Origin: a virus
Lineage: Duplodnaviria > Caudoviricetes
DNA length: 64,000 nt
Direction: 5' to 3' (one strand)
Virus record (IMG/VR): IMGVR_UViG_3300020450_001133
This document shows positions 79 to 56,960 of this stretch, in pieces (the first letter of the stretch is position 1; every line of letters begins with the position of its first letter). The notes under the pieces are model-generated. The model did no database searches, was not told the origin of the DNA, and saw only the letters and a list, made by a program, of their open reading frames with translations. Position numbers and translations under genes: made by a program.

Positions 79-891
79 TTACTCTTTGCTGTTTTTAATA
101 TCTTCTATTCTTGAAATCTGTTCTTCTGTTAGGTTTGGACTTACAACTTCCACTACAACAATAAGGTTTCCTGCCCTACCATTATTAGGATTTGGCATAC
201 CTTTTCCTTGTAATTTTAGTTGTGATCCAGGGTTTGTTCTTTTAGGCACTTTTATATCTAGTTGCTTATTATCCAATTGAGTAACTCTTACTTCAGTGCC
301 AGTCATTGCTTCTAAATAATCTATCTGTACTCTACAATATAAGTCATCGCCTCGTCTATCCCATTCAGGTGGATTGTGTATAAAACATCTAACAATTAAA
401 TTTCCTGGTGGTAATCCTTGATGTTCTGTTGGACCTTTACCAGGCATATTAAATTTAGTACCATGTCTGGTTCCTGCAGGTATAGTAATTTTAAATGTAC
501 CATATCCTGTGTTTATCATTTTTTCTACACCATGATAAACTTCATGTAATTCTAAATGTAAGTCTACTACTCCGTCAGGGTTCCTTGTTGGCTGTCTTTG
601 TTGCTGTCTAAATCCACCCCCAAATATTTCTTGGAATACATCTCCAAAGTCTCCTCTGAAGTTAAAGCCGCCTTGACTAAATGGGTCGCCGCCTTGGAAT
701 GGATTTGGATTATCGTATTGCTGACGTTTTGCAGGATCGCTAAGAGTTTCGTATGCTTGTTGTATTTTCTTAAATTCATTTTCATCTCCACCTTTATCTG
801 GATGATGTTTACCCGCAAGTTTACGATAGGCTTTTTTAATTTCCTTGTCGTCTGCTTGAGGTGATACACCTAATGTTTGATAATGATCCAT
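79..891 (-). CDS. dnaJ: DnaJ class B (CbpA-like) co-chaperone
   Basis: J-domain with HPD (KHHPDKGG), G/F-rich linker, C-terminal substrate domain, no CxxCxGxG zinc finger. Confidence 0.95.
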
Positions 892-897
892 GACTTA

Positions 898-926
898 ATT
901 ATACACTTTATAAAAATGAAAGTCAA
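898..926 (-). promoter_or_regulatory. sigma70-type promoter, leaderless, for dnaJ
   Basis: TTGACT-17nt-TATAAT; -10 box lies 6 nt from the ATG at 891; no SD. Confidence 0.85.
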
Positions 927-934
927 GGACAAAG

Positions 935-1165
935 TTAGGAGAGATTTTCTACTAAATCTATTATATCTTGGATAGTTTGTATGCTATCGATTTCATCATC
1001 TGTTGTTTCAATGTCAAACTCTTTTTCAAGTTCTAAAACAACTTGAACACTATCCAAACTGTCAAAGTTTAAATCGTCGAATACATGTGCTTCAGGAACA
1101 ATTTTATCCTTGTCAATTCTAAGTTCTTCTGATATAATTTTTGTAATACGTTCTACGGTGGTCAT
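935..1165 (-). CDS. acpP: Acyl carrier protein
   Basis: 76 aa acidic; DLNFDSLDSVQVVLELEKEFDI with the phosphopantetheine Ser motif DSL. Confidence 0.93.
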   Translation of the reverse strand: MTTVERITKIISEELRIDKDKIVPEAHVFDDLNFDSLDSVQVVLELEKEFDIETTDDEIDSIQTIQDIIDLVENLS

Positions 1166-1167
1166 AA

Positions 1168-1905
1168 TTAATCTTTTGTATTGCCTATACTAGGTATAAG
1201 CGATTTTAAACTAAAACCTGAGTTTTCCTCTACTTCAGGTTCAACAGAAGCCTGTTCGTTATCTGCTTTTGCTTCTTCTACTTGTTGTTCTTGTCTTTCT
1301 TTGTTCTCTTCTAACCAACCATCAGGTCCTTTGGGTGCAGTTGCTTCTCTATAATAGTAAATTATATCTTTTTGTTGGTTAATGTATCTTTTTATTTCTT
1401 GCAAGTTAGCAGACATTTTTTCATATCCTACAGGAGTAACTGCAAATATTACAAAGTCACCATCTAACATTAATTCTACTTCTGCTATTTTTTGTTGCAA
1501 GTTACCACATACTTGTATTACACCATTGCCATCTTCTAACTGTGGTAATTCAATTCTATTGCCTTCAGCATCACGTTTTACTTTACGTCTTGTTTCTTGC
1601 TTTTCTTCATCAAAGTATTCTTCATATTCAAATCTTTCTGTAGTGTAATACCATTTGCCTTCTGATAATGTCTTTTTACCTGTTGCAGGTTTGCATGGAG
1701 TGTTGGTAATTACTTTCCATTCTACATCATTAAGTTGAATCTCAGGTGGTAAAGGTGGAGCATAAATCTCTACTTCAACAGTTTCCGTAATTACTTTGAC
1801 TGGAGGTAATGGTTGATATCCTCCTCTAGACGCACATGCAGTCATTAGAACTGTAAGTGCAATAATTGAAAATGTCTTAAATGTTCTGTTTCTTAAAATA
1901 TCCAT
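1168..1905 (-). CDS. Lipoprotein, o-spanin-like, with a large internal insertion
   Basis: Lipobox LMTAC, Pro-rich start, C-terminal GYEKMSANLQEIKRYINQQKDIIYYY as in T4-like o-spanins; downstream of i-spanin-like gene. Confidence 0.65.
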   Translation of the reverse strand: MDILRNRTFKTFSIIALTVLMTACASRGGYQPLPPVKVITETVEVEIYAPPLPPEIQLNDVEWKVITNTPCKPATGKKTLSEGKWYYTTERFEYEEYFDEEKQETRRKVKRDAEGNRIELPQLEDGNGVIQVCGNLQQKIAEVELMLDGDFVIFAVTPVGYEKMSANLQEIKRYINQQKDIIYYYREATAPKGPDGWLEENKERQEQQVEEAKADNEQASVEPEVEENSGFSLKSLIPSIGNTKD

Positions 1906-2045
1906 ATCAATAATAGTGTCAGGACTACTCCTTTAAAAAAAGAAATCCAATATGCTGTGTATTCATCGATGTTTAATTTGTACATCCAATTATCTATTTG
2001 AGTGTTATGCCAATCTCTTAACTTTTCTAATTGTTCACTAATCAT
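1893..2045 (-). CDS. Small membrane protein, 50 aa (not in ORF track)
   Basis: MISEQLEKLRDWHNTQIDNWMYKLNIDEYTAYWISFFKGVVLTLLLIWIF; fills the gap with overlaps to both neighbours. Confidence 0.7.
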   Translation of the reverse strand: MISEQLEKLRDWHNTQIDNWMYKLNIDEYTAYWISFFKGVVLTLLLIWIF

Positions 2046-2475
2046 CTTTTCTCTCAACCTCATCTAAGTTTGCTACTTCTTTACTGTCTTGTTCAACTGC
2101 ATCAAATACTTCCTTTGTTGCATTGTTGGCCCTATCTTCAATCATACCAGGTCTTAACCTAGATAATTTTGTGAAGTTATGGTCTTTAAAAATTTGTTGT
2201 GCGTCTTTGGCTTGTCTTTCCCATTCATTAGACTTAACTGTTAAATCACTAATCTGTTCTATTTGTCTACTTGCAGTTTCTTCTAAACTCTTAATAGTTT
2301 TCTCATTAATCTCAGCCGCACTTTGTAATGCCACATTTTGTTGGTTTAATACATCTATTTGTCTTTGCTGTTGTTCTACAGTTTTGTTTAGGTTGCCAAC
2401 AATAAAACTATGGGCACCCCAGGCAAACAGTAATGCTATTCCTACAAATGGTAATGAACGTATAAAACTTAACAT
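2038..2475 (-). CDS. i-spanin (Rz-like)
   Basis: N-terminal TM helix followed by long coiled coil, ending RPGMIEDRANNATKEVFD. Confidence 0.7.
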   Translation of the reverse strand: MLSFIRSLPFVGIALLFAWGAHSFIVGNLNKTVEQQQRQIDVLNQQNVALQSAAEINEKTIKSLEETASRQIEQISDLTVKSNEWERQAKDAQQIFKDHNFTKLSRLRPGMIEDRANNATKEVFDAVEQDSKEVANLDEVERKDD

Positions 2476-5360: not shown

Positions 5361-6692
5361 ATGACAACAAGCATTCATAGACCTAAATGGCAATTAAACA
5401 ACGATCCTGCATGTCAGTTCAAATGGACATGGAGTACTTTATTCTTAAATTTTGGTACAACATCAAGTTGCCATAGATGTAAGCATTGGAAACTTACAGT
5501 AGAAAACTTTATGGACTTTCATAACTTACCTGGTAAGATTGGTGATAGAGAAAAAATGGTTAAAGGGCAATGGCCCGGTAATGGTTGTGAATATTGTAAG
5601 GTTGTAGAAGATGCAGGTGGTATAAGTGAACGTATAGGTTATATCAACGACTTAGAAATGGTACCACCAGAAAATGAAATTGACCCAACAGAAACACATG
5701 TTACTCCAAGACTATTAGAAGTTTATTTTAGTAACTTATGTAATATGAGTTGTACCTATTGTAGTGCAAAATTTAGTAGTGTTATCCAACATGAGAATCA
5801 AAAGTTTGGAGAGTTTACTAAAAATGGCTTAGAAATATATGAATGGCCCGATAATCCAGAATACGAAGTAATGAGGGATATGTTTTGGGATTGGATGGAC
5901 TTACATGGACAAGAATTGTTTACATTACATGTTTTAGGTGGTGAGCCTTTATTCCAACCAGAGTTTGAAATGTTTTTAGATTGGTTTGATAAAAATCCAT
6001 GTCCTAATTTAGAATGGGTTATATTCAGTAACCTTAAACACAATACAATAAGATTAGTTAGCCAAGTTGAAAGAATAAAAGAACTTATAGCAAAAGGTAA
6101 ACTAAAAGGATTTCAAGTTAATGTAAGCATAGACAACTTTGGCAAAGAAGCCGAGTATGCCAGACATGGAATTATTTGGGACCAATTTGTAGATAACTTT
6201 ACATTCTTAGCACAAGAAAAATGGATTGGTATGCAAGTACAAAGTACAATATGTCCTATTACAGTTCAAAGTATGTGGCAACTGTATGACTTTATATTGA
6301 ACTTTGAAGACCCTAGAATAAATTTAAGTTGGAACACAATACAAGATCCTAAATGGTTTAATCCAAGTAGATTTGGAACATACTGTTTAGATGGTATAGA
6401 TAAATTGATAGAAAGGTTAAACCAATCTCCTTTCTCACAGCATCATAACATACCATATCTATTAGGAATAAGAAATCAAATTAGTAAAGCAAGATGTGAC
6501 TCATATGAAATGATAAGATTTAAAACACATTTAGACGAACTAGATGTAAGAAGAGGCTTGAAGTGGAGACAACTCTATCCTGACTTATCTGAACACATTG
6601 AAAAAAATATCACAACTGATGATATTATATTCCAAGAATTAAAAATTATGGGTGCTCCGACTGGAGACCAAGAAGTTAAGAACGCAACTTAA
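5361..6692 (+). CDS. Radical SAM protein with N-terminal Twitch-like Cys cluster (start moved to ATG 5361)
   Basis: CNMSCTYC (CxxxCxxC), GGEP motif, N-terminal CQFKW...SSCHRC and CEYC. The track start lies upstream of a terminator. Confidence 0.88.
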   Translation: MTTSIHRPKWQLNNDPACQFKWTWSTLFLNFGTTSSCHRCKHWKLTVENFMDFHNLPGKIGDREKMVKGQWPGNGCEYCKVVEDAGGISERIGYINDLEMVPPENEIDPTETHVTPRLLEVYFSNLCNMSCTYCSAKFSSVIQHENQKFGEFTKNGLEIYEWPDNPEYEVMRDMFWDWMDLHGQELFTLHVLGGEPLFQPEFEMFLDWFDKNPCPNLEWVIFSNLKHNTIRLVSQVERIKELIAKGKLKGFQVNVSIDNFGKEAEYARHGIIWDQFVDNFTFLAQEKWIGMQVQSTICPITVQSMWQLYDFILNFEDPRINLSWNTIQDPKWFNPSRFGTYCLDGIDKLIERLNQSPFSQHHNIPYLLGIRNQISKARCDSYEMIRFKTHLDELDVRRGLKWRQLYPDLSEHIEKNITTDDIIFQELKIMGAPTGDQEVKNAT

Positions 6693-7615
6693 CTAACACT
6701 ATTCATTTCAAGTTCAACAAGTGTAGCCGCTAAGTTTATCTCAGGATCTGCTACTGCAACACTCTTTGCAATACCATTTCTTATAATAACGATTGCTTGG
6801 TCTTGTTGTAGTTCTGTTTTACCCCATAACTCTAAGTTACGATACATGAACTTGTAAACTTCTTCATACTCTTCAGGTCTTGCTTGATTAACAATCATTG
6901 TTCTTGCGTCTTTGTACTTACCTGCTTTGAATAATTCTACTGCACTCAACATCCAATCACTTGTATTACCATCACCATCTTGTGGCTTTTGTAAAACATT
7001 ATCTACTACGTTTTGTTGTGTAAGATTAATTGCTTTACGCAAGTCTGGATATGTTGCTTGTACATAAGTGTCTAGTGTTTCTAAATCTACTTCAACACCT
7101 TCTTCAATACATATTGTTGCAATACGAGCCGTGAACTCTGTTATGTCTAGTTTCTCTATGTGGAATCCTTGACATCTGCTATGTAATGCAGGAATAATTC
7201 TTTGTGGGTAGTTGCAAGTTAGTATGAATCTACAACTGGTATGATACATCTCCATAACACCACGAAGTGCCGCCTGTCCATTAGGAGTAATGTAATCAGC
7301 CTCATCAAGCAACACATACTTCATATCACCAAAAGGCATTGTGCCACTAAAGTTTGTTATTTTGCTTCGGATAGTTTCAACACTATTTTCATTACTTGCA
7401 TTTATTTCAAGTATGTCCATACTGTCTACATCAAGTTCTAGTAACAATACCTTTGCAAGTGTTGTTTTACCAGTTCCAGGAGCACCACTAAATAGCAAGT
7501 GTGGTAGTGCTCCTTCTTGTACCCAGCCACTCACCTGCTGGCGTTGACCGTCATCTCTAAACACATAGGTACCTATGTTCGACGGTCTATATTTCTCTAC
7601 CCATAAATCCTTCAT
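6689..7615 (-). CDS. Clamp loader small subunit (RFC / T4 gp44-like)
   Basis: WVEKYRP, GAPGTGKT, LLDEAD, SRC motifs. Confidence 0.95.
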   Translation of the reverse strand: MKDLWVEKYRPSNIGTYVFRDDGQRQQVSGWVQEGALPHLLFSGAPGTGKTTLAKVLLLELDVDSMDILEINASNENSVETIRSKITNFSGTMPFGDMKYVLLDEADYITPNGQAALRGVMEMYHTSCRFILTCNYPQRIIPALHSRCQGFHIEKLDITEFTARIATICIEEGVEVDLETLDTYVQATYPDLRKAINLTQQNVVDNVLQKPQDGDGNTSDWMLSAVELFKAGKYKDARTMIVNQARPEEYEEVYKFMYRNLELWGKTELQQDQAIVIIRNGIAKSVAVADPEINLAATLVELEMNSVS

Positions 7616-11802: not shown

Positions 11803-11969
11803 TCGTTAGTCTTACCGCTTTCTAATCCAGTTCCCATAAGTATTAAAACAATACCAGCAATTATCCACCATGGGTTAATTGCATTGAAAACTACTCCTGC
11901 TAATACAATACAACCTGCTAATCCTATTGTAGATAATCCTGTTCTATTTTCTGTGTTTGGAAATTTCAT
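11799..11969 (-). CDS. Small two-TM membrane protein, 56 aa (not in ORF track)
   Basis: MKFPNTENRTGLSTIGLAGCIVLAGVVFNAINPWWIIAGIVLILMGTGLESGKTND. Confidence 0.7.
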   Translation of the reverse strand: MKFPNTENRTGLSTIGLAGCIVLAGVVFNAINPWWIIAGIVLILMGTGLESGKTND

Positions 11970-12325
11970 ATTGCGTCTGGTTTCATAGATGTTAAACTAC
12001 CAATATTAATTGTGTTCTTAGGTTCTTCATCTGATATAAGTAAACAACCTTCAGGGTCTACTTTCCAAAGTTTTGCACCTTCTTCTAGTCTATCATCTTT
12101 AACAGTAAAGCCTTCAGTCCATCTACCATATGAAACATATAGCCATTGACCTGGTTTTACCCAATCAATGTCTGGTCCAACTTCAAATGCTTTGAACCAA
12201 CGTGGTGTTATTCCTTCGTCTTTACCTATTGTGGATTTAATAATAATACCTGCTTCAGTGGTCTTGTCTCCAAAATCACCTTCAATGCAAAGTATGTTGT
12301 CTTTATATGCTCTAAGAGTCGGCAT
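11966..12325 (-). CDS. GroES/gp31-like co-chaperonin (start moved to ATG 12325)
   Basis: LRAYKDNILC...KTTEAGIII mobile loop...EVGPD...VKPGQWLYV pattern of the cpn10 fold. Confidence 0.7.
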   Translation of the reverse strand: MPTLRAYKDNILCIEGDFGDKTTEAGIIIKSTIGKDEGITPRWFKAFEVGPDIDWVKPGQWLYVSYGRWTEGFTVKDDRLEEGAKLWKVDPEGCLLISDEEPKNTINIGSLTSMKPDAI

Positions 12326-12773
12326 CGTTTTCCCAATCGTCCTCGTCATCGTATATTGGTACCATTTCAATGTCACCATTTGGTAATTCAACTTCTTTAT
12401 ATCCTACTGGTGTCCTTTCTTCATCTGCTTTTGCAGGAACACTTGCTGGATCTACTTGGTCAATTACACTTTGGTTTGCTTCAGTCTTTTGTGCTTCAGC
12501 AGTTTTAACTTCTGGTTCCATCTCTGAATCTGTTTGTGCCGGTTGGTCAGGCTGTGCGCCTTTAAGTGTAGATTTAGCAGTACTTGACTTAGGATTTTCT
12601 GTATAGTATGCCCTGGCTCTGTCTTCAGCAGTTTGGATTATTTCACCATTTTTACCAAGTACATCACCTTTTGCATTAACTTTCATGTTGCCCATTGCAG
12701 GCTCTTCTGAGTTTTGAGCAAGTAAGGCTTCCATATCTATTATAATGCCTTTATTTGTTCTTCTTTGTACCAT
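12312..12773 (-). CDS. Hypothetical acidic protein
   Basis: 153 aa ORF with SD-like AGGA. Confidence 0.7.
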   Translation of the reverse strand: MVQRRTNKGIIIDMEALLAQNSEEPAMGNMKVNAKGDVLGKNGEIIQTAEDRARAYYTENPKSSTAKSTLKGAQPDQPAQTDSEMEPEVKTAEAQKTEANQSVIDQVDPASVPAKADEERTPVGYKEVELPNGDIEMVPIYDDEDDWENDADS

Positions 12774-12781
12774 CTTATCCT

Positions 12782-13273
12782 CTACTTTAAGAATTCTTTA
12801 ATGTCTAAGTTATATTTCAAACTATCTACTTTGTGTACACCTAGTAAGTATAATACATAACTGGCTACACTACTACCTCTTCCAACACCCCAAACAAGTT
12901 CATGCTTACGCATGGTCTCTATAATATATATTAGTATTCTCAACACTGGAAATAAATTCCTGGCTTCGAATTCAGTTAGTTCCATTTCTACTCTTGCAAG
13001 TTCGCCTGAGTCACCTTGCTTTACTAACTTTCTAACATATTCCTTTACATCTATTGTTTGGTAGTGTTCTGGAATGTTATATGTATTTATGCGGTCATAG
13101 TCACTATCGCCTAATTTTTTTAGCACATTTATATCAAAATCATTACAAAATTCATTAAACTTGTCTATGTCTTCTGATGTTGAAAACTCTGTAGAATGTA
13201 GGCTCTTGCCCTTATACAGCATTTCTAAGCCTGTGTTTTCATCACTCTGATATCTGTTAAACTTATCTAACAT
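12782..13273 (-). CDS. Stand-alone fragment of DNA polymerase III alpha (DnaE) palm region
   Basis: WGVGRGSSVASYVLYLLGVHKVDSLKYNLDIKEFLK matches the DnaE G(P/V)GRGS...Y.LGI..(I/V)DP.KY.L motif; only 163 aa. Confidence 0.8.
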   Translation of the reverse strand: MLDKFNRYQSDENTGLEMLYKGKSLHSTEFSTSEDIDKFNEFCNDFDINVLKKLGDSDYDRINTYNIPEHYQTIDVKEYVRKLVKQGDSGELARVEMELTEFEARNLFPVLRILIYIIETMRKHELVWGVGRGSSVASYVLYLLGVHKVDSLKYNLDIKEFLK

Positions 13274-13279: not shown

Positions 13280-13308
13280 ATTATATGGGATATATGTGTA
13301 TTTGTCAA
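13280..13308 (-). promoter_or_regulatory. sigma70 promoter, leaderless
   Basis: TTGACA-17nt-TATAAT, 6 nt from ATG 13273. Confidence 0.9.
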
Positions 13309-15828: not shown

Positions 15829-16414
15829 TCCTTTTCTCAATGATTTCGTCAGCAAGACCAAACTCTAGTGCTTCTTCGCTAGTCATAAAGTTATCTCTAT
15901 CCATAGCAGTTTCAAATTCTTCGTAAGTTTTGCCTTTACTGTTGTGCTTGACATATATCTCTGTCAACTCTGTTTTAATTCTTTCTAATTCCTTAGCACG
16001 AATTATAACATCACTAGCCTGACCGTTTGCACCACCTAATGGTTGATGTATCATAGTCCTGCTTTTAGGCAATAAAAATCTTTTACCTTCAGTACCTGCT
16101 TGTGCAAGTAGGCTTCCCATTGAAGCCGCTTGTCCCATTACAATAGTAGAAATATCTGGTTGTATATACTGCATGGTATCATACATTGCCATTCCACTTG
16201 TAACTGCACCACCAGGTGAGTTAATATAAAAACTTATATCAGCAGTTGGGTCTTCTGCTTCTAAGAAAAGTAGTTGAGCACAGATACTGTTTGATACTGA
16301 GTCCGTTACTTCTCCATTCAAGAATACAATTCTTTCTTTAAGCAGTCTACTGTAGATATCATAACTACGTTCTCCTGCTGACGTCTTTTCTATTACATAT
16401 GGTACAAAATTCAT
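15794..16414 (-). CDS. clpP: ATP-dependent Clp protease proteolytic subunit
   Basis: [30 protein letters not shown] (catalytic Ser), MIHQP (His), DRD. Confidence 0.98.
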
Positions 16415-16442: not shown

Positions 16443-16826
16443 TTAATTTGCTAATTGCTTTATGCGGTTTAGGAAACTTGTAACGCCTTTTAATCGTTGG
16501 TATGATATAATATTCGTATTGAGAAAAGGATACTTTTCTAAAGTAACATTTTTAATATCTTCACGTGAAGATAATTGCGAACATATAACTGTTAGTAATC
16601 CTTTTACAAAAGCACTACTACTATCAAAGATTAACTGGTCACCTTCTAATACAACCCAAACATTACTGGTACAACCATATACTTTGTTGTCTTCTGTTTG
16701 AATTTCTCTGACATGCTCACGGTCTGCTAGTTCCATAACAGTCTCGTAAAAGTCAGCCGGTGATAATTCGTTTAAGTAATCTATTTCCATTGTCATTATT
16801 ATATTGCCTTTTACTGCAAATGTCAA
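16443..16826 (-). CDS. sufE: SufE-family sulfur acceptor
   Basis: [11 protein letters not shown] (acceptor Cys), [10 protein letters not shown], final SYQRLKG pattern; start uncertain. Confidence 0.8.
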
Positions 16827-18836: not shown

Positions 18837-18941
18837 TTAGCACTCCTTAGGATTGGCTTTACAATACCTTTTTAATTCTTTTATTAAAAGTTTTATATCA
18901 CCATCTATGCCATTCTTGTCTGAATGGCTTAGTCCTTTTTT
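18837..18941 (-). other. -1 ribosomal frameshift signal and trans-frame extension
   Basis: A_AAA_AAG (18941-18935), 6-nt spacer, GCCATTC-AGACAA-GAATGGC hairpin (18928-18909); -1 frame open for 32 codons with no start codon of its own. Confidence 0.7.
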
Positions 18942-19283: not shown

Positions 19284-19619
19284 TCAATAGGTTAAAGAGT
19301 CTTTATATACAGGTTCGCCACCTAAACTATGTAGGTCTGCATACCATAATTCTTCTAATAGGATTTTTCGTGTGCTTTCATTTTCTGTAGCATTTATTAA
19401 TGTAATTAAATTTTCTCTATTGGATTGCTCTATCTGATAACATAACTCAACCCATTTGTACATAATAAAAAATGTTCCTGGAACAAAAATTATATAAAGC
19501 AGTTGTATTGGATAATAATATGCAACAAGTAATATGTGTAAACCAATTACAGTTGCTAATTGGATATGTACAGAACGTACATATTTCTTTATTGCTTTAT
19601 TGACTTGGATCTGACTCAT
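19284..19619 (-). CDS. Membrane protein, hypothetical
   Basis: 111 aa with two hydrophobic segments. Confidence 0.65.
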   Translation of the reverse strand: MSQIQVNKAIKKYVRSVHIQLATVIGLHILLVAYYYPIQLLYIIFVPGTFFIMYKWVELCYQIEQSNRENLITLINATENESTRKILLEELWYADLHSLGGEPVYKDSLTY

Positions 19620-19758
19620 ACATCACAGTTGTTGTACCACGCCAATAACCATCTAATCCTATGTCAACCATAAGTGCAATTAATAGTAGTGTCGCAATAA
19701 TGGAAAGGTATAGATTAATACCTGCGGATATTTTCATCCATTTGATTAGATGTTTCAT
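19597..19758 (-). CDS. Small membrane protein, 53 aa (not in ORF track), leaderless
   Basis: MKHLIKWMKISAGINLYLSIIATLLLIALMVDIGLDGYWRGTTTVMYESDPSQ; 6 nt from a -10 box. Confidence 0.75.
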   Translation of the reverse strand: MKHLIKWMKISAGINLYLSIIATLLLIALMVDIGLDGYWRGTTTVMYESDPSQ

Positions 19759-19764: not shown

Positions 19765-19792
19765 ATTATAACAAATTTAAATCATTTGTCAA
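19765..19792 (-). promoter_or_regulatory. sigma70 promoter, leaderless
   Basis: TTGACA-16nt-TATAAT, 6 nt from ATG 19758. Confidence 0.85.
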
Positions 19793-19796: not shown

Positions 19797-19825
19797 AAAA
19801 AAAGACGCACTCCGAAGAGTGCGTC
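19797..19825 (-). terminator. Rho-independent terminator with cUUCGg loop
   Basis: GACGCACTC-TTCG-GAGTGCGTC-TTTTTTT. Confidence 0.92.
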
Positions 19826-26779: not shown

Positions 26780-27150
26780 ACCAGTGTGTCTCCATTTTCA
26801 GTTACGTCATTGCCTCTTACACCTTTGTATTGTTCATACCCTGTGTCTGGTAAAAAATACATCCATGCTTTTCCTTGTGTGGTGTGTACAATTTGTTTGT
26901 TATAAAATTCTGGATACCCTTCAATGGCGTCTAATTGTTCCATTACATCATCACTGACTTCCCATACTTCACCTTGTATGTGATATTTTCCATTTAGAAA
27001 TACTCCTGGAAATGCTCCTAGGTCAGACATCTCGTAATCTGGATATTGTGTTTTTGCTTTTCCTACAATACTAGCACCTTCACCAAATTGATTAAGTCCT
27101 CTAATTTCTCCGCCACTTTTTAGTGTTCCATATACAAATACTTTATTCAT
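26770..27150 (-). CDS. Gamma-glutamylcyclotransferase (GGACT/AIG2-like)
   Basis: VFVYGTLKSG, GEVWEV, LDAIEGYP. Confidence 0.88.
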   Translation of the reverse strand: MNKVFVYGTLKSGGEIRGLNQFGEGASIVGKAKTQYPDYEMSDLGAFPGVFLNGKYHIQGEVWEVSDDVMEQLDAIEGYPEFYNKQIVHTTQGKAWMYFLPDTGYEQYKGVRGNDVTENGDTLVWR

Positions 27151-27382
27151 AATCTTTCCTACTCTCTACATCTAAGATTTTATCTTCAAGCATTTTGATT
27201 CTTGCATTCATTCCACTAATAATCATACTAGTATCTTGGTCCGCAATAATAGTATCTAATGCAATTCTATCATTTTGCATTGTTTCTATTTGGTCTTCTA
27301 ACTCTTTAACCTTATTTTCCAATGTGTATGCAAGGTCAATTAGTTCTGCTTTAGTCATTTGTGTCTTAGACTTTTTACTCAT
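27143..27382 (-). CDS. Coiled-coil hypothetical protein, leaderless
   Basis: 79 aa; 6 nt from a -10 box. Confidence 0.7.
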   Translation of the reverse strand: MSKKSKTQMTKAELIDLAYTLENKVKELEDQIETMQNDRIALDTIIADQDTSMIISGMNARIKMLEDKILDVESRKDYE

Positions 27383-27388: not shown

Positions 27389-27417
27389 ATTATACGTTAT
27401 TTTTTAACTGATGTCAA
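27389..27417 (-). promoter_or_regulatory. sigma70 promoter, leaderless
   Basis: TTGACA-17nt-TATAAT, 6 nt from ATG 27382. Confidence 0.9.
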
Positions 27418-30051: not shown

Positions 30052-30078
30052 ACAAATATTTATGAATGGATTTAAGTA

Positions 30079-34832: not shown

Positions 34833-34860
34833 ATTATACTTCTTTATTCTAATTTGTCAA
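34833..34860 (-). promoter_or_regulatory. sigma70 promoter
   Basis: TTGACA-16nt-TATAAT. Confidence 0.8.
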
Positions 34861-36178: not shown

Positions 36179-36363
36179 TATTCAACCTCTTGCCAATAAC
36201 CTTGATTCAATAAATTATCAATGTATAATTGACCACCTTCATATGTCATAAGATGATTTTCGCCATCTTCATTGACTTTCCAAAATTCTAAACCTTCTTC
36301 ACGGGTACTTTCAAATGTAATAACATTTTTACCGTTTGTTAAAACTTTTACAAATTCAATCAT
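36178..36363 (-). CDS. Hypothetical protein
   Basis: 61 aa, coupled. Confidence 0.6.
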   Translation of the reverse strand: MIEFVKVLTNGKNVITFESTREEGLEFWKVNEDGENHLMTYEGGQLYIDNLLNQGYWQEVE

Positions 36364-36806
36364 TTGCCTATATCTTTAATGTTGTTTTTGCCAATAACCT
36401 GATATGCACCTTTGTTGTAAGCAGGAGCAATAGTATAGTTCTTGCATATTTCTGCTTTTTCTTTCTCCCACTCAAGGTCATCTTTCTTAGTGCTACTGCC
36501 ACCAGTCAAAGGCATACTAGGATATTTTTTAGCATGTTCTTTCATTTGCCTAGCACGTTCTAGTGCCGCATGGTCAGGTTTTGCTGGCTTGAATGCTTCT
36601 CTACTTCGAGGATCTATTTTAGGTGTTATGCCATGACAGTAATCAACATACTGTTCAAAAGTCCACTTAGGCAGACCCATACGTTTATGTTCTTTGTTCT
36701 TAACTCTTAAGCCTTCTTCCCACTTGGCAATGTTTGCCTTAGTCATCTTAGGCTTATACTTTCTATTTCTAATGGTCGTTAGACCTTGTGCTAAATGCAT
36801 TGTCAT
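36360..36806 (-). CDS. Hypothetical phage protein, leaderless
   Basis: 148 aa; ends TIAPAYNKGAYQVI; 7 nt from a -10 box. Confidence 0.75.
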   Translation of the reverse strand: MTMHLAQGLTTIRNRKYKPKMTKANIAKWEEGLRVKNKEHKRMGLPKWTFEQYVDYCHGITPKIDPRSREAFKPAKPDHAALERARQMKEHAKKYPSMPLTGGSSTKKDDLEWEKEKAEICKNYTIAPAYNKGAYQVIGKNNIKDIGK

Positions 36807-36813: not shown

Positions 36814-36842
36814 ATTTTACCGGATTTATTGATTAATGTCAA
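36814..36842 (-). promoter_or_regulatory. sigma70 promoter
   Basis: TTGACA-17nt-TAAAAT. Confidence 0.8.
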
Positions 36843-39782: not shown

Positions 39783-41086
39783 AAAAAACTACTTACTAAT
39801 ACGTCCTCGGCTATGTCTTTTGCTAGTCCTCGGCTCTGCAAATAATATAATTTGCTTTTATCTATATTACTTATGGTACAACCATGAGTACATTCAATTT
39901 CTTTGGTATGTATATCTAGTATGGGTCTGGAGTGCATTTTTGTATTTGGAGTCAACATTAAATTTTCGTTTTTCATATGACCATCAAATCCTACACTATT
40001 AGGACTTACATCAAATCTGCCTATAAAACTTGTACTAGCATTTTCATTTCCAACGTTCTTAATATCAATTATACTTTTGTTATCTGAACTTCTACTGTCA
40101 ACATGCACAAACTGATGATATTCATGTCCTTTGTAGATGTTGTTTCTACCATTAAGTGTTAAATCTACATTTGTGGTTAAGTCAAAATAAAAGTTTTCTT
40201 GATAGTAGTCTGATCCTGTGTTTTTAAAATTTACAGTTATCTTACTGTTAGGGTGGCAAATAAATTTGCTATCAAATACACCGAAGCCTCCATAATCGTT
40301 TGTAATTCTATCTATAACCAGTTCACTGTTTTCTCTAACAATGTAGATTATATTGTTCATTTGTCCAGATTGTAATTTTACATTCTCTTTTAAATGAACT
40401 TTTGTTTTGTGTTGTACATCTATAATGTTTGTATTGCATTCTAAAATACCTTTAGAATTCTTATTTAGATATTGAATACTAATTGGATTCTTCATAAAGT
40501 TTCCATTAGCACCAGATGGAACAATCACAGTATTTAAAAAAGGTGAGAATGCGTATGTAAAATTAGAAAAGTTTTCTGTCCTTCTTATTAGTTTTACATA
40601 TTCATCTTGCTTGTTCCTGTTTACTTTTATTTGGTCTAAAATTTGTAATTGGAAAGGTTTCTTAACTCCTAAGTCGTTGCTAGGATAAAGTATTCCGTCA
40701 TTAAACAATAATGTATTCTTTTTAAATGCTACTTGTTCAAATGGTTCTAGGTCTGCAAGATAATTTTTTTCATTGGGCTCACTTGACCAAAGTATTTCTT
40801 TATTGTAAAGTTTGTGTAAGTTTGCAAAGTTGAATTGTTCAGATTTACTATCAGGCAAGCCTATTTTACTAATGTATTCTACATTATTGTTATAGCCGTT
40901 ATAAAAATTATTTAATTTATGTTTAAGATGATGAAAGTCTCTTGTTTTTGTATTCTCACCTATAACATAATCATAAAGGTCTTTGATAGTGTAATAACTA
41001 TCAAACTCATTTGTAGGTTCTAATGTTTCTCTGTAGAATAAATTTTTATACACTTTCAAACCCTTGACTAAATATTTTGTTTGCAA
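39776..41086 (-). CDS. sufD: SufD (divergent N-terminus)
   Basis: C-terminal SRPILDIHTKEIECTHGCTI..ID...LYYLQSRGL; start uncertain. Confidence 0.85.
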   Translation of the reverse strand: MQTKYLVKGLKVYKNLFYRETLEPTNEFDSYYTIKDLYDYVIGENTKTRDFHHLKHKLNNFYNGYNNNVEYISKIGLPDSKSEQFNFANLHKLYNKEILWSSEPNEKNYLADLEPFEQVAFKKNTLLFNDGILYPSNDLGVKKPFQLQILDQIKVNRNKQDEYVKLIRRTENFSNFTYAFSPFLNTVIVPSGANGNFMKNPISIQYLNKNSKGILECNTNIIDVQHKTKVHLKENVKLQSGQMNNIIYIVRENSELVIDRITNDYGGFGVFDSKFICHPNSKITVNFKNTGSDYYQENFYFDLTTNVDLTLNGRNNIYKGHEYHQFVHVDSRSSDNKSIIDIKNVGNENASTSFIGRFDVSPNSVGFDGHMKNENLMLTPNTKMHSRPILDIHTKEIECTHGCTISNIDKSKLYYLQSRGLAKDIAEDVLVSSFLC

Positions 41087-41741
41087 GTTCTATATCGCCT
41101 GATAGAACTCCATCCTTCTTCAATACTAATACTTTGTCTGGGTTTAACCCTTCAACTAATTTTTGATAATGTGTAACAACAATCAAAGTGTTATTATCAT
41201 TACGCCATTCATTGAGTTGTTCTATTAATGCTTTTATTCCATCTACATCTAATCCACTGTCTGGTTCATCAAGCATTGCCAATTTGGTATTAAGCATACT
41301 CATTTGTATGAGTTCATTTTTCTTTTTCTCACCACCACTGGCGTCTGTGTTAAGGTTTCGTTTATCCCAATTATCAGGCAAGTTAAGTTTTGCACTTACT
41401 TCTTTAAAATTTCTTAATGTTTCTGCTATATCTTTTCCTGATATATTTAATGCCTGTTTCATAAACTGAAAGTTACTTAAACCAGGTACACTTGTTGGTG
41501 CTTGGAAACCTACAAACATTCCTAGTCTTGCTCTTTCATCTGTTTCTAACTCTGTAAGGTCACTACCCATAAAAGTCATTTCGCCAGATACATTAAGGTC
41601 AGGTCTTCCCATGATGCCATGTAATAGGGTGCTTTTACCTACACCATTACTTCCCATCACCACATAAGTTTTGCCAATGTCGAAAGTCGTACTGACATTG
41701 TCAAGTATATGTTCTACAGAAAAATCTTTTAATTTTAACAT
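41046..41741 (-). CDS. sufC: SufC ABC ATPase
   Basis: GSNGVGKS, GMFVGFQ.P, SGGEKKKNE, LDEPDSGLD, VTHYQKL. Confidence 0.95.
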   Translation of the reverse strand: MLKLKDFSVEHILDNVSTTFDIGKTYVVMGSNGVGKSTLLHGIMGRPDLNVSGEMTFMGSDLTELETDERARLGMFVGFQAPTSVPGLSNFQFMKQALNISGKDIAETLRNFKEVSAKLNLPDNWDKRNLNTDASGGEKKKNELIQMSMLNTKLAMLDEPDSGLDVDGIKALIEQLNEWRNDNNTLIVVTHYQKLVEGLNPDKVLVLKKDGVLSGDIELANKIFSQGFESV

Positions 41742-41747
41742 GCCGAT

Positions 41748-41776
41748 ATTATACTACCTTTTAGGTATTAAGTCAA
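41748..41776 (-). promoter_or_regulatory. Internal sigma70 promoter, leaderless, for sufC-D-S-T
   Basis: TTGACT-17nt-TATAAT, 6 nt from the sufC ATG. Confidence 0.85.
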
Positions 41777-41778
41777 TA

Positions 41779-43539: not shown

Positions 43540-43743
43540 TTATTTACTATGTGGTGGTAATTTTGCCTCTACAAACATTTCATGTTTTCGTTTAACCGGA
43601 TTATACTTTCTTAATTTTAACTTCTGATTTTCAATTGTCAACCTTTTTGTTTTCAAAGCGGTGTAATGATATGTGTGACTATCTCTGGTTTCACCTTCCG
43701 GTATTAAATAAACTAAGGTTTTTCTTTTGTCTTTCTTTGCCAT
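43540..43743 (-). CDS. rpmG: Ribosomal protein bL33 (Cys-free type)
   Basis: KLKLRKYNPVKRKHEMFVEAK; basic, 67 aa. Confidence 0.8.
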   Translation of the reverse strand: MAKKDKRKTLVYLIPEGETRDSHTYHYTALKTKRLTIENQKLKLRKYNPVKRKHEMFVEAKLPPHSK

Positions 43744-48127: not shown

Positions 48128-48897
48128 TATTCTCCGTTATAATAATGAAGACGTTCTATATCATCTTCACTGGTCTCATCACCATATTGTATTTCAATAA
48201 TGTGACATGGTTTATCATTTCTATTAACAATTTGATGCCAATCATTTGCTTTCACATGAAAATTATCATCTTGTTTAAGAGTTACATTTGTAAAGTTGTC
48301 TGGATTACTAGCACTATACTTTACTTCGCATTCTCCTTTACTGACAAACCATATTTCACTTCTTTTAAAGTGACGTTGATAACTGATACCTTTCCCTGGT
48401 TCAATTATCAACTCCTTAACTTTTACTACTTCATCTTGGAACAAATCACTAAATTCGCCCCAAACCCTTCTAGTAGTTGGATATTGCCATTCCTTTAGTA
48501 TCCAACTGCTACTGTTTGATTTATTGGAACCTCCAACACCAAACACAAATTCAACGCCTTCAACAATCATTTCTGGAATGTTATCTTTTGTTCTATCACC
48601 TCCGTTGCAAAAGATAATTTCTGCATGTTCATATGCCTTCTTGGCATTTTCCAGAGCCTCAACTGCTGAGCCGTCTTTATCATCGAAACCCCAAACATTG
48701 TCTACCATGTCCATTGTTTCTAGAATTCTTGCCCTCTCTTCGAAAGGCATAAAGGGCCTGCCTTTTTTTCTTGTGAGCCACTCATCGCTATTAAGTGCTA
48801 CAACTAGTTTGTCTCCTAATTGTTTTGCTCCTTCTAAGTAGTCTATATGTCCAGAATGCAGTGGATCAAATCCACCTGATACGACTACTACTTTCAT
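48127..48897 (-). CDS. Cytidylyltransferase fused to a cupin (mannose-6-P isomerase type C-terminus)
   Basis: SGGFDPLHSGH, NSDEWL.RKKG, NGGDR; C-terminal RVWG...ISYQRHFKRSEIW...WHQI.N. Confidence 0.88.
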   Translation of the reverse strand: MKVVVVSGGFDPLHSGHIDYLEGAKQLGDKLVVALNSDEWLTRKKGRPFMPFEERARILETMDMVDNVWGFDDKDGSAVEALENAKKAYEHAEIIFCNGGDRTKDNIPEMIVEGVEFVFGVGGSNKSNSSSWILKEWQYPTTRRVWGEFSDLFQDEVVKVKELIIEPGKGISYQRHFKRSEIWFVSKGECEVKYSASNPDNFTNVTLKQDDNFHVKANDWHQIVNRNDKPCHIIEIQYGDETSEDDIERLHYYNGE

Positions 48898-49325
48898 TAG
48901 AAGTTACCACGACTTCTCTGCATAGCGGCTATCCTTTCGTTGTATTCTCTTACTCGCCTTGTTTTACGTTTGGACTTCATCCATTTTTGACCAGTGGGCA
49001 TGTATTGTTTAAAATCGCCTCTTGCTTCGGCTTCTCTAACATACTTGTCCCATCTCTTTTTGGCTTGTTTCTTTTTACGATTTCTTTTTGCACTAGGCTT
49101 TTCGTAATATTGTTGCTTTGCTAATTCCTTTTGGAATTCTGCTTTTTCTAATCTCTTTTTCAAAACTCTTAATGCCTTATTCACGTCGTTGTTTCGAACT
49201 TCAATAGAACTATTGAATTTGTCCAGATAATGTTTATCTTTCTTAGGTTGTTCTTTCCTTTTATTGGAGTTCCAACCTTGCGTTATCTTTCTACTTTGCT
49301 GTCTGCCTTGCGATTTATTACTCAA
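48897..49325 (-). CDS. rpsU: Ribosomal protein bS21 with N- and C-terminal extensions
   Basis: Core IEVRNNDVNKALRVLKKR......KEL....YYEKPSAKR.RKK..A.KR. Confidence 0.85.
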   Translation of the reverse strand: MSNKSQGRQQSRKITQGWNSNKRKEQPKKDKHYLDKFNSSIEVRNNDVNKALRVLKKRLEKAEFQKELAKQQYYEKPSAKRNRKKKQAKKRWDKYVREAEARGDFKQYMPTGQKWMKSKRKTRRVREYNERIAAMQRSRGNF

Positions 49326-50590
49326 CTTTTACCTCTAATTTTTATTTTATAATCTTTATCCGATTTTTCATTACCGTTAGTATAAACGAAAACAGGGTAA
49401 GTGTCAACATCTTTTGTTGGATATTTGTTGAATCTCACCGTTTTGACCCCATTTTCTTTTAGTTTAGGTGCTCTGTACATAATGTTGTGTAAACTGTTTT
49501 CTACTATGGATTTTAATCCTCTAGCACCAGTTTTTGTTTTACTAGCCAGTTTTGATATATCATCTATGTACTCATCATTAAACTCTAATTCTATATCATC
49601 AAACTCTAAAAGTTTTTTAACTTGTGGAATAACACTTGCTTTTGATGATTTTAAAATTGTTTTCATATCGGATTGTGATAATGGTTCTAAAGGTACAATG
49701 TTTGGTAATCTACCAACAAGTTCTGGAATGAGACCATAACTGATTAAATCGTCATGCTCTACTTTGTGTTGCCAATTGTCTTTTTTGGTTGTTGATTTTA
49801 ATTGTTTGTTGAATCCTATGTTCTTTTTGTTTGCCTTAGTGTTTATTTGTTTTTCTAAACCTACAAATGCACCACTACATATAAACAATACATTTGTTGT
49901 ATCAAACTCTACATATTGGTCCATACGTTTTGAACCGTTAGAAGATACTTTAACTACTGTACCTTCAATTAATCTTAGGAGTGCTTGTTGTACACCTTGT
50001 CCACTAATGTCCTTTGTGCCGGTGTTAGACTCGCCCTTACGAGCCTTTTTATCTATTTCATCTATGAATACAATACCTTTTTGTGCTAGTTCTAAGTTCC
50101 AATCGCACATATTAAGTAAACGTTCAAGCATACTTTCAACATCTTCCCCAACATAACCTGCTTCTGTTAATGTTGTAGCATCAGCAATAGCAAAAGGTAC
50201 ACTTAATTTATCTGCAAGTGTCTTTGCTAATAAAGTTTTACCTGTTCCTGTATTACCCAATATAATAATGTTACTTTTTTCTATATCAGTTTCACTATCA
50301 TTGTAAATTGTTTTGTAATGATTGTATGCACATACAGATAATATTTCTTTTGCATACTCTTGGCTAATTACATATTCATCAAGATGTGCTTTGATTTCTT
50401 CTGGAGTTGGGATATCTTCGAAGGATAAGTCTTCTAATGTATCTTCTTCATTGATAATTTTATGACTGATGTTAATACATTCGTTACAGATGTAAGAATT
50501 AGGACCTGCTATTAACTTTTTTACTTCAGTTCGCTTTTTACCACAAAAACTACAACTTAGATTTTGTTCGTTGTCTCTATCACCGGGCAT
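49322..50590 (-). CDS. clpX: ClpX unfoldase
   Basis: CSFCGK...ICNEC zinc domain, GNTGTGKT, GYVGEDVE, IDEIDK, IGF loop, GARGL. Confidence 0.97.
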   Translation of the reverse strand: MPGDRDNEQNLSCSFCGKKRTEVKKLIAGPNSYICNECINISHKIINEEDTLEDLSFEDIPTPEEIKAHLDEYVISQEYAKEILSVCAYNHYKTIYNDSETDIEKSNIIILGNTGTGKTLLAKTLADKLSVPFAIADATTLTEAGYVGEDVESMLERLLNMCDWNLELAQKGIVFIDEIDKKARKGESNTGTKDISGQGVQQALLRLIEGTVVKVSSNGSKRMDQYVEFDTTNVLFICSGAFVGLEKQINTKANKKNIGFNKQLKSTTKKDNWQHKVEHDDLISYGLIPELVGRLPNIVPLEPLSQSDMKTILKSSKASVIPQVKKLLEFDDIELEFNDEYIDDISKLASKTKTGARGLKSIVENSLHNIMYRAPKLKENGVKTVRFNKYPTKDVDTYPVFVYTNGNEKSDKDYKIKIRGKS

Positions 50591-52816: not shown

Positions 52817-52887
52817 ACCAATATTTATCGTATTTTTGCAACCAATTAAACAATACTGATTACATAAACTATCCTGTTAATGCATAA

Positions 52888-53697: not shown

Positions 53698-53718
53698 ACT
53701 TCTATCCTGTAAAATTGT

Positions 53719-53746
53719 ATTATACAGAATAGTTATGAAATGTCAA
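53719..53746 (-). promoter_or_regulatory. sigma70 promoter
   Basis: TTGACA-16nt-TATAAT. Confidence 0.85.
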
Positions 53747-53754
53747 CCTATTTT

Positions 53755-54213: not shown

Positions 54214-54260
54214 AATTACTCCTGTGTTTCCTACAAGAGTATTTATCTTAAAATACTGTT

Positions 54261-54806: not shown

Positions 54807-54831
54807 ACTCCCCTTCTCCCTTTATTTTTTG

Positions 54832-55212
54832 TTAGGCAACATTCCTTACAACATGAGCATCATGGTCATGTTCAATAAAACTACCATCTGGATTTCTACC
54901 AGGTGATGTTGAAGCATGGATAACATTATCAAATGTTCTAATGTCATATCCAGTTCTATGTAGTATGCTGTCAACAATTCTTTGTCTCATCAACTTCATG
55001 AAAGGAACATTAATATTTACAGGGTTATCTGAACCTTCTGGATGATTAACATTTTCTTCGTGATTATACCACATTGATTCTAAACCTGTAAGTTGAATCG
55101 TAACACCTGGTTCATCAGTATTGTCATTAGAACAACTAACTGTATTAATCCAGTATCCATTTACAGATGTAATTTTATCTTTGCTTTGGTTTGTTGTGTA
55201 AATACTATTCAA
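54832..55212 (-). CDS. Hypothetical protein
   Basis: 126 aa, TTG start with SD GGGAG. Confidence 0.6.
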   Translation of the reverse strand: MNSIYTTNQSKDKITSVNGYWINTVSCSNDNTDEPGVTIQLTGLESMWYNHEENVNHPEGSDNPVNINVPFMKLMRQRIVDSILHRTGYDIRTFDNVIHASTSPGRNPDGSFIEHDHDAHVVRNVA

Positions 55213-55245
55213 TTTTGCTCCCTTTCTTATTTAAAATATACATAT

Positions 55246-55274
55246 ATTATACTAAAATTAAGGTGGTATGTCAA
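55246..55274 (-). promoter_or_regulatory. sigma70 promoter
   Basis: TTGACA-17nt-TATAAT. Confidence 0.9.
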
Positions 55275-55313
55275 GTATTTTGTGCCAGTTTTTTTGGCGT
55301 ATTTTGAACTTAT

Positions 55314-55667
55314 TTAATCGATTTGTTTGGCTGGTATTCTACTCACTTTACTCCAATTTTCATCGTCAGTATAACTAGCCGCCTCTTCGTATGTGGGTAA
55401 TGGATCTTTTACTTTTGTGATTACGGGCCAAGTTTTGCTCATTTCTGTATTAAAATCTAGCCACTGTTGGTCTGATTCTGTTTCAAGTTTTCTATCTGAC
55501 ACAATGGCGTTGACTGGGCATTCAGGTTCACAGATAGCACAATCGATACAAACTTCAGGGTCTATAACTACTGTATTCTCTCCTTCATGAAAACAATCAA
55601 CAGGGCATACTTGAACGCAGGTTGTATGTTTACAATCTACGCATTCACCCTTTACAACATAAGTCAA
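55314..55667 (-). CDS. fdxA: 7Fe/8Fe ferredoxin (FdxA-like)
   Basis: CVDCKHTTCVQVCPVDCF and CIDCAICEPECPV; TTG start, SD GAGGAG, late promoter 55691-55696. Confidence 0.93.
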   Translation of the reverse strand: MTYVVKGECVDCKHTTCVQVCPVDCFHEGENTVVIDPEVCIDCAICEPECPVNAIVSDRKLETESDQQWLDFNTEMSKTWPVITKVKDPLPTYEEAASYTDDENWSKVSRIPAKQID

Positions 55668-55869
55668 ACTAAAACTCCTCTTAACACCAATATTTACTCA
55701 AAATACACCATTTCTACATACTTTTCCAGCAAATGGTTAAATATTAGCAACTGATTGGTATTGAACCAGTTGACAACATAAAGTATTTCACCGCTCATTA
55801 AGATGTGATAGATAGGAAAGGAACTCGGTGTTCCCCAATCAGTCAACACAAAAAGACTCCGGAGTCAAT

Positions 55870-56925
55870 TTATGTGTTTAGATATTGCAGGTATAGTTGT
55901 TCACTAGCAAGGTTTTTAGCCTTTGCTTCGCATTGAATGTCAAAATTATCAAAGAAACTCAGTGCCCATTCATTAACTTTTTCGTTAGGGTAAAAATCTG
56001 AGTGTGCTCTAAGTTTTTGTTTTTTGCAACCTAAATCCAGTAAGGTTGAAAAGTCATGCATTGTTGTATGTCTACTTCCTGATTCAAACAAGGATGGTTC
56101 AGGTAACCATTCATCCCTGCTATAACTATAATGTAGAGTAGGCCTAACACCACGCCAACTATCAATGACCCTTTTAACACGGTCGTCATCCGCTTGTATA
56201 TATTCTTCATCTCTAATCCAATGGTGATGTATGTCCAACACCAGTGCTAAATGTTTCTCCAATTTTAATGATTCATCAAGTCCGTGACACATTTCATCAT
56301 TCTCGATTGCAATAGTGTTACGAGCCTCGGGTGATAACTTAGGTAGTATATTTATAATACCTTCTGCTCCTTGGCGTCCAGATATGTGTATATTGAGTTT
56401 CATATCCATAAACTCTTGTCCATATCCCATCCAACGTGCCATGCTGGCATGATATTCGAATTCGTCTATACTACGTTCTACTACATCAGGCTTATCACTA
56501 GCAAGGACACAAAACTGCCCAGGATGAAAACTAATACGCACATCCAAATCTTTTGCAAGTTGTCCAACCTTGGCAAATCCATCTTCGAGTATTCGTTGAT
56601 TGTCAGCATCATCCCAAAGATAACGCCAAGTAGGCTCAGTAGCCATAGGTATTTGATTACTTCCAAGTCTTACCATCCTCCGTTCTGCTGGTAAAGTTGT
56701 ACCTACCCATTCAACAAGATTGTAGGCACTTTGCATATTGTGAGTGACCAAATCCAGCATTCTTTCTTCAGCCACATGTTTTTCCTGTCTGTTACACCAT
56801 GCAACTGTTGTAACTTTCTCAGTATAATTTTGTTGTATTTCTTTTAGTATCTTGGGTTTTTGACTCTGGTCAGGATCAAGATACTTACAACAAAAACCAA
56901 TTCTCTTTACAGTAGAATCAAACAT
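55870..56925 (-). CDS. uvdE: UV-damage endonuclease (UvdE/UVDE)
   Basis: IGFCCK, RLGS, SFHPGQF, IENDE, LDIHHH, RPTLHYS, AHSD, EAKAK. Confidence 0.92.
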   Translation of the reverse strand: MFDSTVKRIGFCCKYLDPDQSQKPKILKEIQQNYTEKVTTVAWCNRQEKHVAEERMLDLVTHNMQSAYNLVEWVGTTLPAERRMVRLGSNQIPMATEPTWRYLWDDADNQRILEDGFAKVGQLAKDLDVRISFHPGQFCVLASDKPDVVERSIDEFEYHASMARWMGYGQEFMDMKLNIHISGRQGAEGIINILPKLSPEARNTIAIENDEMCHGLDESLKLEKHLALVLDIHHHWIRDEEYIQADDDRVKRVIDSWRGVRPTLHYSYSRDEWLPEPSLFESGSRHTTMHDFSTLLDLGCKKQKLRAHSDFYPNEKVNEWALSFFDNFDIQCEAKAKNLASEQLYLQYLNT

Positions 56926-56931
56926 GCTGAT

Positions 56932-56960
56932 ATTATATTATATAAAGTAGTCAATGTCAA
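56932..56960 (-). promoter_or_regulatory. sigma70 promoter, leaderless
   Basis: TTGACA-17nt-TATAAT, 6 nt from ATG 56925. Confidence 0.9.

Follow-up and report, generated by a model that had tools for sequence, protein, structure and literature searches.

Leaderless mRNAs, which begin at the start codon and carry no 5' untranslated region (5'UTR), are known from actinobacteria, and the Thermus phages phiYS40 and P23-45 reportedly make middle and late leaderless transcripts, as Sevostyanova and colleagues are said to have described in 2007. In Deinococcus, as experimentally validated, leaderless mRNAs arise where 6-7 bp separate the -10 element from the open reading frame (ORF) (PMC12340547), and in Deinococcus-Thermus a -35 box added at 17 bp makes the promoter stronger. 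Here we analyze a comparable arrangement in the viral DNA of record IMGVR_UViG_3300020450_001133 (Duplodnaviria; Caudoviricetes), a stretch of 64,000 nucleotides (nt) hereafter called the window, in which consensus sigma70 promoters end 6 or 7 nt before the ATG of conserved ORFs.

With the Thermus phages the window phage would share a lytic life style, many leaderless genes and a host in which leaderless mRNAs are common; however, phage and host are unrelated, and theirs are said to be extended -10 promoters of middle and late genes, whereas consensus sigma70 and T4-late classes are found here. The likeness to Deinococcus-Thermus lies in a TANNNT-type -10 box placed 6-7 bp before the start codon, the lack of a 5'UTR and the coexistence of genes led by a Shine-Dalgarno (SD) sequence (PMC12340547; Deinococcus deserti, PMC4007540), but the present case concerns a phage, has full consensus -35 and -10 boxes, includes a second class of gp55 type and is known from sequence alone. 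The mRNA of lambda cI made from the sigma70 promoter PRM also begins at the AUG, according to the account of Shean and Gottesman (1992) that is cited in PMC12340547; that is a single regulatory gene in a host poor at leaderless translation, whereas here the feature defines a gene class across a clade. The mechanism is already known; in the present case its signature is conserved over a phage clade and extends to late promoters. Our search of the accessible literature found no paper on leaderless mRNAs in marine T4-like, jumbo or PA5oct-like phages, nor in PA5oct or XacN1 themselves.

Promoter-to-ATG spacing in the window

The sites lie on the minus strand and have the form TTGAC(A/T)-16/17-TA(T/A)AAT, and a further 6 nt, or 7 nt at 36806 and 16790, lead to the ATG of a conserved ORF. 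Seven of them had been described in a sequence-only reading of this DNA, with 6-nt spacing in six, and all seven are present as described, 36806 being the only one among them with 7 nt. An ORF begins at every one of these ATGs, and the gene names given there hold as well: DnaJ, UvdE, an ABC ATPase that adjoins SufB, and a partial DNA_pol3_alpha match. An eighth site, missed previously, can be added at a sufE-like gene (16790). The features are given below with lengths in amino acids (aa), together with a leadered promoter as a contrast case; conserved layouts refer to four related contigs, G001 (340 kb), G003 (110 kb), G004 (119 kb) and G005 (130 kb), which with the window make up 764 kb.

898-926, minus strand: promoter TTGACT-17-TATAAT-TAAGTC-ATG, 6 nt to the dnaJ ATG at 891
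79-891, minus strand: dnaJ, 270 aa, J domain from residue 2; layout kept in G003 and G004
13280-13308, minus strand: promoter TTGACA-17-TATAAT-ACAAAG-ATG, 6 nt to the ATG at 13273
12782-13273, minus strand: 163-aa ORF with a partial DNA_pol3_alpha match; N-terminus MLDKFN conserved, leaderless layout in G003 and G001
16798-16826, minus strand: promoter TTGACA-17-TATAAT, 7 nt to the ATG at 16790
16443-16790, minus strand: sufE-like gene, 115 aa, leaderless candidate; layout kept in G003 and G004
19765-19792, minus strand: promoter TTGACA-16-TATAAT-ATACCT-ATG, 6 nt to the ATG at 19758, right behind an intrinsic terminator (19804-19825)
19597-19758, minus strand: 53-aa hydrophobic ORF, leaderless candidate; conserved in G003
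27389-27417, minus strand: promoter TTGACA-17-TATAAT-GTATCT-ATG, 6 nt to the ATG at 27382, in the gap after a TauD-like gene
27143-27382, minus strand: 79-aa ORF (MSKKSK...), leaderless candidate; layout kept in G003 and G004
36814-36842, minus strand: promoter TTGACA-17-TAAAAT-ATAAATT-ATG, 7 nt to the ATG at 36806, right behind a terminator made of a GC hairpin and a T-run
36360-36806, minus strand: 148-aa ORF, leaderless candidate; conserved in G003
41748-41776, minus strand: promoter TTGACT-17-TATAAT-ATCGGC-ATG, in the 37-nt gap between sufB and sufC, 6 nt to the sufC ATG at 41741
41046-41741, minus strand: sufC-like ABC ATPase, 231 aa, adjoining SufB, leaderless candidate
56932-56960, minus strand: promoter TTGACA-17-TATAAT-ATCAGC-ATG, 6 nt to the uvdE ATG at 56925
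55870-56925, minus strand: uvdE, 351 aa; start MFD kept in the leaderless, leadered and promoterless relatives compared
55213-55274, minus strand: contrast case, leadered promoter TTGACA-17-TATAAT with its -10 box at 55246-55251 and a leader of ~30 nt containing AAGGGAG; start at 55212

Strong promoters were defined as those matching at least 11 of the 12 consensus positions. The window contains 19 of them (17 on the minus strand), compared with a mean of 3.45 in 100 dinucleotide shuffles, and an ATG stands at offset 6 or 7 in 9 of the 19, whereas the shuffles averaged 0.14 such pairs and never exceeded 2, which excludes chance; one of these nine pairs (49379) opens merely a 9-codon frame. The 6-nt peak extends beyond the window to the four related contigs, a scope that is clade-wide rather than genome-wide, and thus withstands the refutation named in the sequence-only reading, a lack of enrichment over the genome. 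In this pooled set there are 146 strong promoters, nearly all on the coding strand; 25 of them have the ATG at offset 6, and 12 have it at offset 7. Given a background rate of 2.1%, the 25 cases at offset 6 have a binomial p of 1.5e-15. Few ATGs fall at offsets 8-18, after which a broad second mode appears at 19-35 nt. The same picture emerges when the set is widened to 189 distinct promoters, taken from 93 loci and the window, 45 of which have the ATG at offset 6. The peak is moreover specific for ATG, since GTG and TTG are each found once at offset 6 in the pooled set and are unenriched, and the base at -1 is a pyrimidine (C or T) in 25 of 32 leaderless candidates, as expected for the rule of a pyrimidine at -1 and a purine at +1 of start sites.

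The promoters of this type, into which 7 or 8 of the 17 minus-strand consensus promoters of the window fit, stand beside several other strong promoters of the same window that are followed by SD-bearing leaders. A scan that ignored the -35 box, accepting any -10-like box 5-8 nt before a long ORF, returned only the eight strong sites plus chance-like hits, and the class therefore consists of full-consensus promoters only. Merely 6-7 nt remain between the -10 box and the ATG, which leaves no room for an SD sequence or a 5'UTR. Because the sigma70 -10 hexamer occupies positions -12 to -7, a 6-nt gap places the A of the ATG at +1.

This geometry, its conservation, its restriction to ATG and its agreement with the pyrimidine/purine rule argue that the mRNAs are probably leaderless, or nearly so. 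To this extent the sequence-only reading is supported in having transcripts begin at the AUG, whereas its further inferences, on early operons and on escape from SD control, are not supported. In the mechanism that we propose, host RNA polymerase would use the consensus promoters and start transcription on the A of the AUG or within 1-2 nt of it; ribosomes that recognise the 5'-terminal AUG without SD contact would then translate the first gene of each unit from a leaderless message, and the downstream genes of the unit would have ordinary SD-led or coupled starts. T4-type late promoters would act alike at their own spacing, and leaderless initiation would be a general expression mode of the clade, serving ~7-16% of its genes.

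SD-less starts right behind a promoter box are easily mis-set in the gene calling of marine phages; for instance, the mechanical ORF list has sufE begin at the TTG that belongs to its -35 box, TTGACA (16443-16826, minus strand). As to the so-called DnaE fragment, its match covers only positions 22-94 of the 260-position profile of the pol III alpha NTPase domain, and it is followed within 11966-13273 (minus strand) by two small ORFs without family match; being a short conserved ORF in G001 and G003 as well, it is no fresh pseudogene.

Conservation in a marine phage clade

The window has a GC content of 35%, and its minus strand carries most of the genes between ~12 and 57 kb. It encodes dnaJ, phoH, a clamp loader, clpP, clpX, clpS, hsp20, uvdE and a homologue of ribosomal protein bS21, sufB/C/D/S/E/T-like genes, ferritin, ferredoxin and nadE, as well as a GMP-reductase/IMPDH-like gene, a TauD-like gene and a ketoacyl synthase; it contains no tRNA genes and no Rfam matches. 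A nucleotide search of the phage collection with the window found no matching record. Close relatives of its UvdE are encoded on more than 200 IMG/VR marine viral contigs, its clamp loader shares 55% identity with the one in the Pseudomonas jumbo phage PA5oct and 40% with that of XacN1, and 109 ORFs are common to PA5oct and G001. The marine UvdE relatives, the identity with the PA5oct clamp loader and the ORFs shared by PA5oct and G001 place the window in a widespread clade of uncultured marine jumbo phages that are PA5oct-like and distantly T4-like, and for which the spacing offers a sequence-only route to transcription units.

Conservation of the layout was followed at individual genes. In 11 of 13 relatives (61-93% protein identity), sufC is preceded by TTGACA-17-TA(T/C/A)AAT-6 nt with varying spacers and 6-mers; the remaining two, which are the most distant, have a sufB stop that overlaps the sufC start (GGATAATG). 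Since these distant relatives keep the overlapping stop and start, it looks like a promoter cassette of ~37 nt (41742-41778 in the window; around position 3001 in loci L081-L093) was inserted into an originally coupled sufB-sufC junction, which would thereby have become an internal promoter of leaderless type. Upstream of uvdE, 52 distinct contexts could be compared, of which 16 have the promoter at exactly 6 nt, 16 are leadered (27-53 nt) and 20 have no promoter and are operon-internal; none of the 52 shows an intermediate spacing, or one of 5 or 7 nt. The leaderless layout of dnaJ, sufE, the DnaE fragment and the 79-aa ORF is kept in G001, G003 and/or G004.

The N-termini of orthologues are the same whether the gene is leaderless, leadered or promoterless. 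This conservation over promoter states, combined with the J domain of DnaJ beginning at residue 2, which places the true dnaJ start at 891, argues that the annotated ATGs are the true starts. Among orthologues the geometry is retained while the spacer sequence turns over. Cassettes of the PeSL kind (promoter-early stem-loops), which in T4-type phages repeat a near-identical early promoter and stem-loop around shuffled genes, were not found here, the eight window promoters differing outside both hexamers; a hairpin precedes only two of the eight, and that hairpin is a terminator.

A separate observation concerns five loci (L030, L032, L059, L062 and L064), in which TATAAT and 6 nt upstream of the uvdE match lead to the ATG of an 8-codon mini-ORF starting MFT, with a full, AGGT-led uvdE downstream that likewise starts MF. 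The mini-ORF may be the remnant of a duplicated leaderless 5' end.

Late-type promoters

T4 shares with the window phage the sigma70 early motifs, the gp55 late motif (TATAAATA) and the reliance on host RNA polymerase, and the labels early and late are used here by analogy with T4. The ATAAATA motif, by which alone the late class was assigned, is abundant and strand-biased toward gene starts. Its form [ACG]ATAAATA occurs 248 times in the five contigs. The ATG follows after 5 nt in 46 of these and after 6 nt in 11; no other offset as far as 16 has more than two, and a second mode appears at 17-35. Three examples are found in the window:

52817-52828, minus strand: ATAAATA, 5 nt from the ATG (52816) of a 471-aa ORF that is a candidate for a leaderless late gene
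30052-30063, minus strand: ATAAATA, 5 nt from the ATG (30051) of a ketoacyl-synthase-like gene of 404 aa
61456-61468, plus strand: ATAAATA, 6 nt from the ATG (61469) of a 636-aa ORF

The open complex formed with gp55 has flipped adenines at -12, -9 and -8 (PMC7892883). On the basis of these positions TATAAATA would occupy -13 to -6, with ATAAATA at -12 to -6, and with a 5-nt gap the ATG therefore falls on +1. In each of two unrelated promoter types the offset would thus match the predicted start site of that type, a specificity that strongly favors an explanation by transcription start over one acting at the RNA level. Since the late-type promoters share the two-mode pattern, at an offset of 5 nt in both window and clade, the feature is not specific to early genes, and the earlier assignment to early operons proves too narrow.

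Cultured phages and competing explanations

Cultured phages were scanned with the same scripts as the contigs of the clade, scoring sigma70 promoters with an ATG at offset 6-7 and ATAAATA motifs with an ATG at offset 5-6:

T4, host E. coli: sigma70 0/8, ATAAATA 0/65; leadered only
Syn9, host Synechococcus: sigma70 0/30, ATAAATA 0/38; leadered only
PA5oct, host Pseudomonas: sigma70 1/48, ATAAATA 3/145; almost none
XacN1, host Xanthomonas: sigma70 8/82, ATAAATA 7/56; two-mode pattern
HTVC008M, host Pelagibacter: sigma70 1/19, ATAAATA 8/45; late genes only

T4, Syn9 and PA5oct show ordinary leadered peaks, with promoters 19-35 nt before the ATG and no peak at 5-7 nt. PA5oct resembles the window phage in its promoter motifs and in relying on host RNA polymerase; its promoters have been described as TTGAC/TATAATA in a paper that does not mention leaderless mRNAs (PMC7318152). 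By a rough gene count, leaderless-positioned starts amount to 7-16% of ORFs in the marine contigs versus <1% in PA5oct. The jumbo phage XacN1 (AP018399) has nine distinct consensus promoters with an ATG at 6-8 nt (e.g. 34283, 43386, 50565 and, on the minus strand, 107531 and 301294), several of them duplicated in its long terminal repeats, yet the share of such promoters is lower than in the window (~10% vs ~40%). In Xanthomonas campestris pv. vesicatoria, differential RNA sequencing (dRNA-seq) found 14% leaderless mRNAs and no consensus SD (PMC3300014). The cultured SAR11 phage HTVC008M (NC_020484) carries ATAAATA-N5-ATG at 6268-6282, 7550-7564, 16005-16019, 18914-18928 and 19444-19458, and all five of these checked sites are annotated starts of coding sequences (gp010, CsgF, tape measure, DNA end protector and tail-tube cap); we found no published report of this pattern in HTVC008M, a phage that also carries curli and adenylate-cyclase genes. 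With the exact motifs, little or nothing above controls was obtained for Atu_ph07 and Phosso, which are alphaproteobacterial relatives, or for SCTP-2 and GAP32, whose promoters may all differ.

Because XacN1 and HTVC008M are positive while T4, Syn9 and PA5oct are not, and because Xanthomonas is rich in leaderless mRNAs, the trait would appear to follow the host more than phage ancestry. This distribution fits an adaptation to hosts that routinely translate leaderless mRNAs, and most likely the pattern reflects a host whose ribosomes translate such mRNAs efficiently, rather than a special regulatory escape. More tentatively, and with the odds somewhat against so general a statement, leaderless starts in T4-related phages could be a host-tracking rather than a lineage trait, gained and lost through a cassette of ~37 nt inserted or removed before the ATG, for sigma70- and gp55-type promoters alike. 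If this were true, major marine hosts, possibly SAR11-like bacteria, would translate leaderless mRNAs efficiently, given the strength of the trait in the marine clade and in the late genes of HTVC008M, and the histogram of -10-to-ATG distances of an uncultured phage would provide a clue to the translation style of its host. The present data already suggest efficient leaderless initiation in the host of this clade and, via HTVC008M, in SAR11. Searches for that host gave no relative of a Gcw_chp-like protein in the genome collection and, for ClpX, matches of only ~50% identity spread over scattered phyla.

Several points weigh against the leaderless reading itself. The feature is missing from PA5oct, which is the closest of the cultured relatives tested, and the capacity of the host for leaderless translation is something that we only infer. 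The candidate 5' ends are only slightly less structured than SD-led coding starts (mean minimum free energy -2.5 vs -3.5 kcal/mol), a weak effect that is confounded by their lower GC content, with no difference in the accessibility of nt 1-12. Finally, not every promoter-ATG pair is a gene start: the frame is tiny at 49371 and in the pairs beneath the -10 boxes at 34833 and 37690.

An alternative that we regard as unlikely holds that early operons employ leaderless starts as a dedicated device, serving either to escape SD-dependent control by host or phage or to exploit a 70S initiation favored under stress. It draws on the early character of sigma70-type promoters by analogy with T4, on the stress-related genes among the sites (dnaJ, sufC, sufE and uvdE) and on the bS21 ribosomal protein that the phage itself encodes. 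The link with stress, which had also been part of the sequence-only reading, is unsupported here; for leaderless mRNAs it has been shown in E. coli and is contested. The pattern recurs at late-type promoters, and SD-like motifs precede 40-58% of ORFs everywhere by a loose motif search, including the first genes of other strong promoters, while uvdE is freely leaderless, leadered or operon-internal among relatives; given these same observations, the notion that these genes evade SD-based control of the host is unsupported. As for bS21, the homologue lies at 48897-49325 (minus strand) in a frame of 142 aa, whose residues 41-91 match Pfam S21 with 52 bits, and has a TTG start after GAGGT. Homologues are present in G001, G003-G005, HTVC008M and PA5oct but not in T4 or Syn9; with PA5oct having bS21 without the signature, the protein was rejected as a link to leaderless use. 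The gene has a sigma70-type promoter of its own, TTGACA-17-TATACT, inside the 3' end of clpX, and a 9-codon ATG mini-ORF stands 7 nt further on (48897-49407, minus strand).

It is also conceivable, though very improbable, that the promoters are real but that their own transcript serves the downstream genes only, while expression of the first gene depends chiefly on read-through transcripts and on SD-independent initiation at the A/U-rich promoter sequence. Indeed, sufC, the 79-aa ORF and others follow closely behind an upstream gene with no terminator between, and many ORFs of these contigs lack an SD-like motif. Yet read-through cannot supply the units at 19758 and 36806, which lie directly downstream of strong intrinsic terminators, and it leaves unexplained the exact offset of 6 nt, the different offset of 5 nt for the late motif, the restriction to ATG, the pyrimidine at -1 and the sparse zone at offsets 8-18. 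That the spacing is a mere by-product of genome compaction or of mobile promoter cassettes without a role in translation, or chance in AT-rich DNA, may be suggested by very short intergenic gaps such as the ~37 nt at sufB-sufC and by a recurring promoter subfamily with a shared spacer (see below), but it is almost certainly wrong, being largely refuted by shuffles and reversed-pattern controls that yield almost nothing, by the retention of spacing while sequence changes and by the missing peak in the AT-rich T4, PA5oct and Syn9.

Two minor features remain to be mentioned. Between clpS and the upstream genes, a 67-aa ORF (43540-43743, minus strand) has a weak match to ribosomal protein L33, with 23.4 bits for a cut-off of 25. 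The promoter subfamily with a conserved spacer (TTGAC-T/A...GCCAC...AAATCCGGTATAAT) recurs in G001 (e.g. 26542, 38091, 66643 and 284512) and G004 (10590, 27635 and 30252) as well as at 36814-36842 of the window, and could represent either a cassette that was duplicated or a site bound by a regulator.

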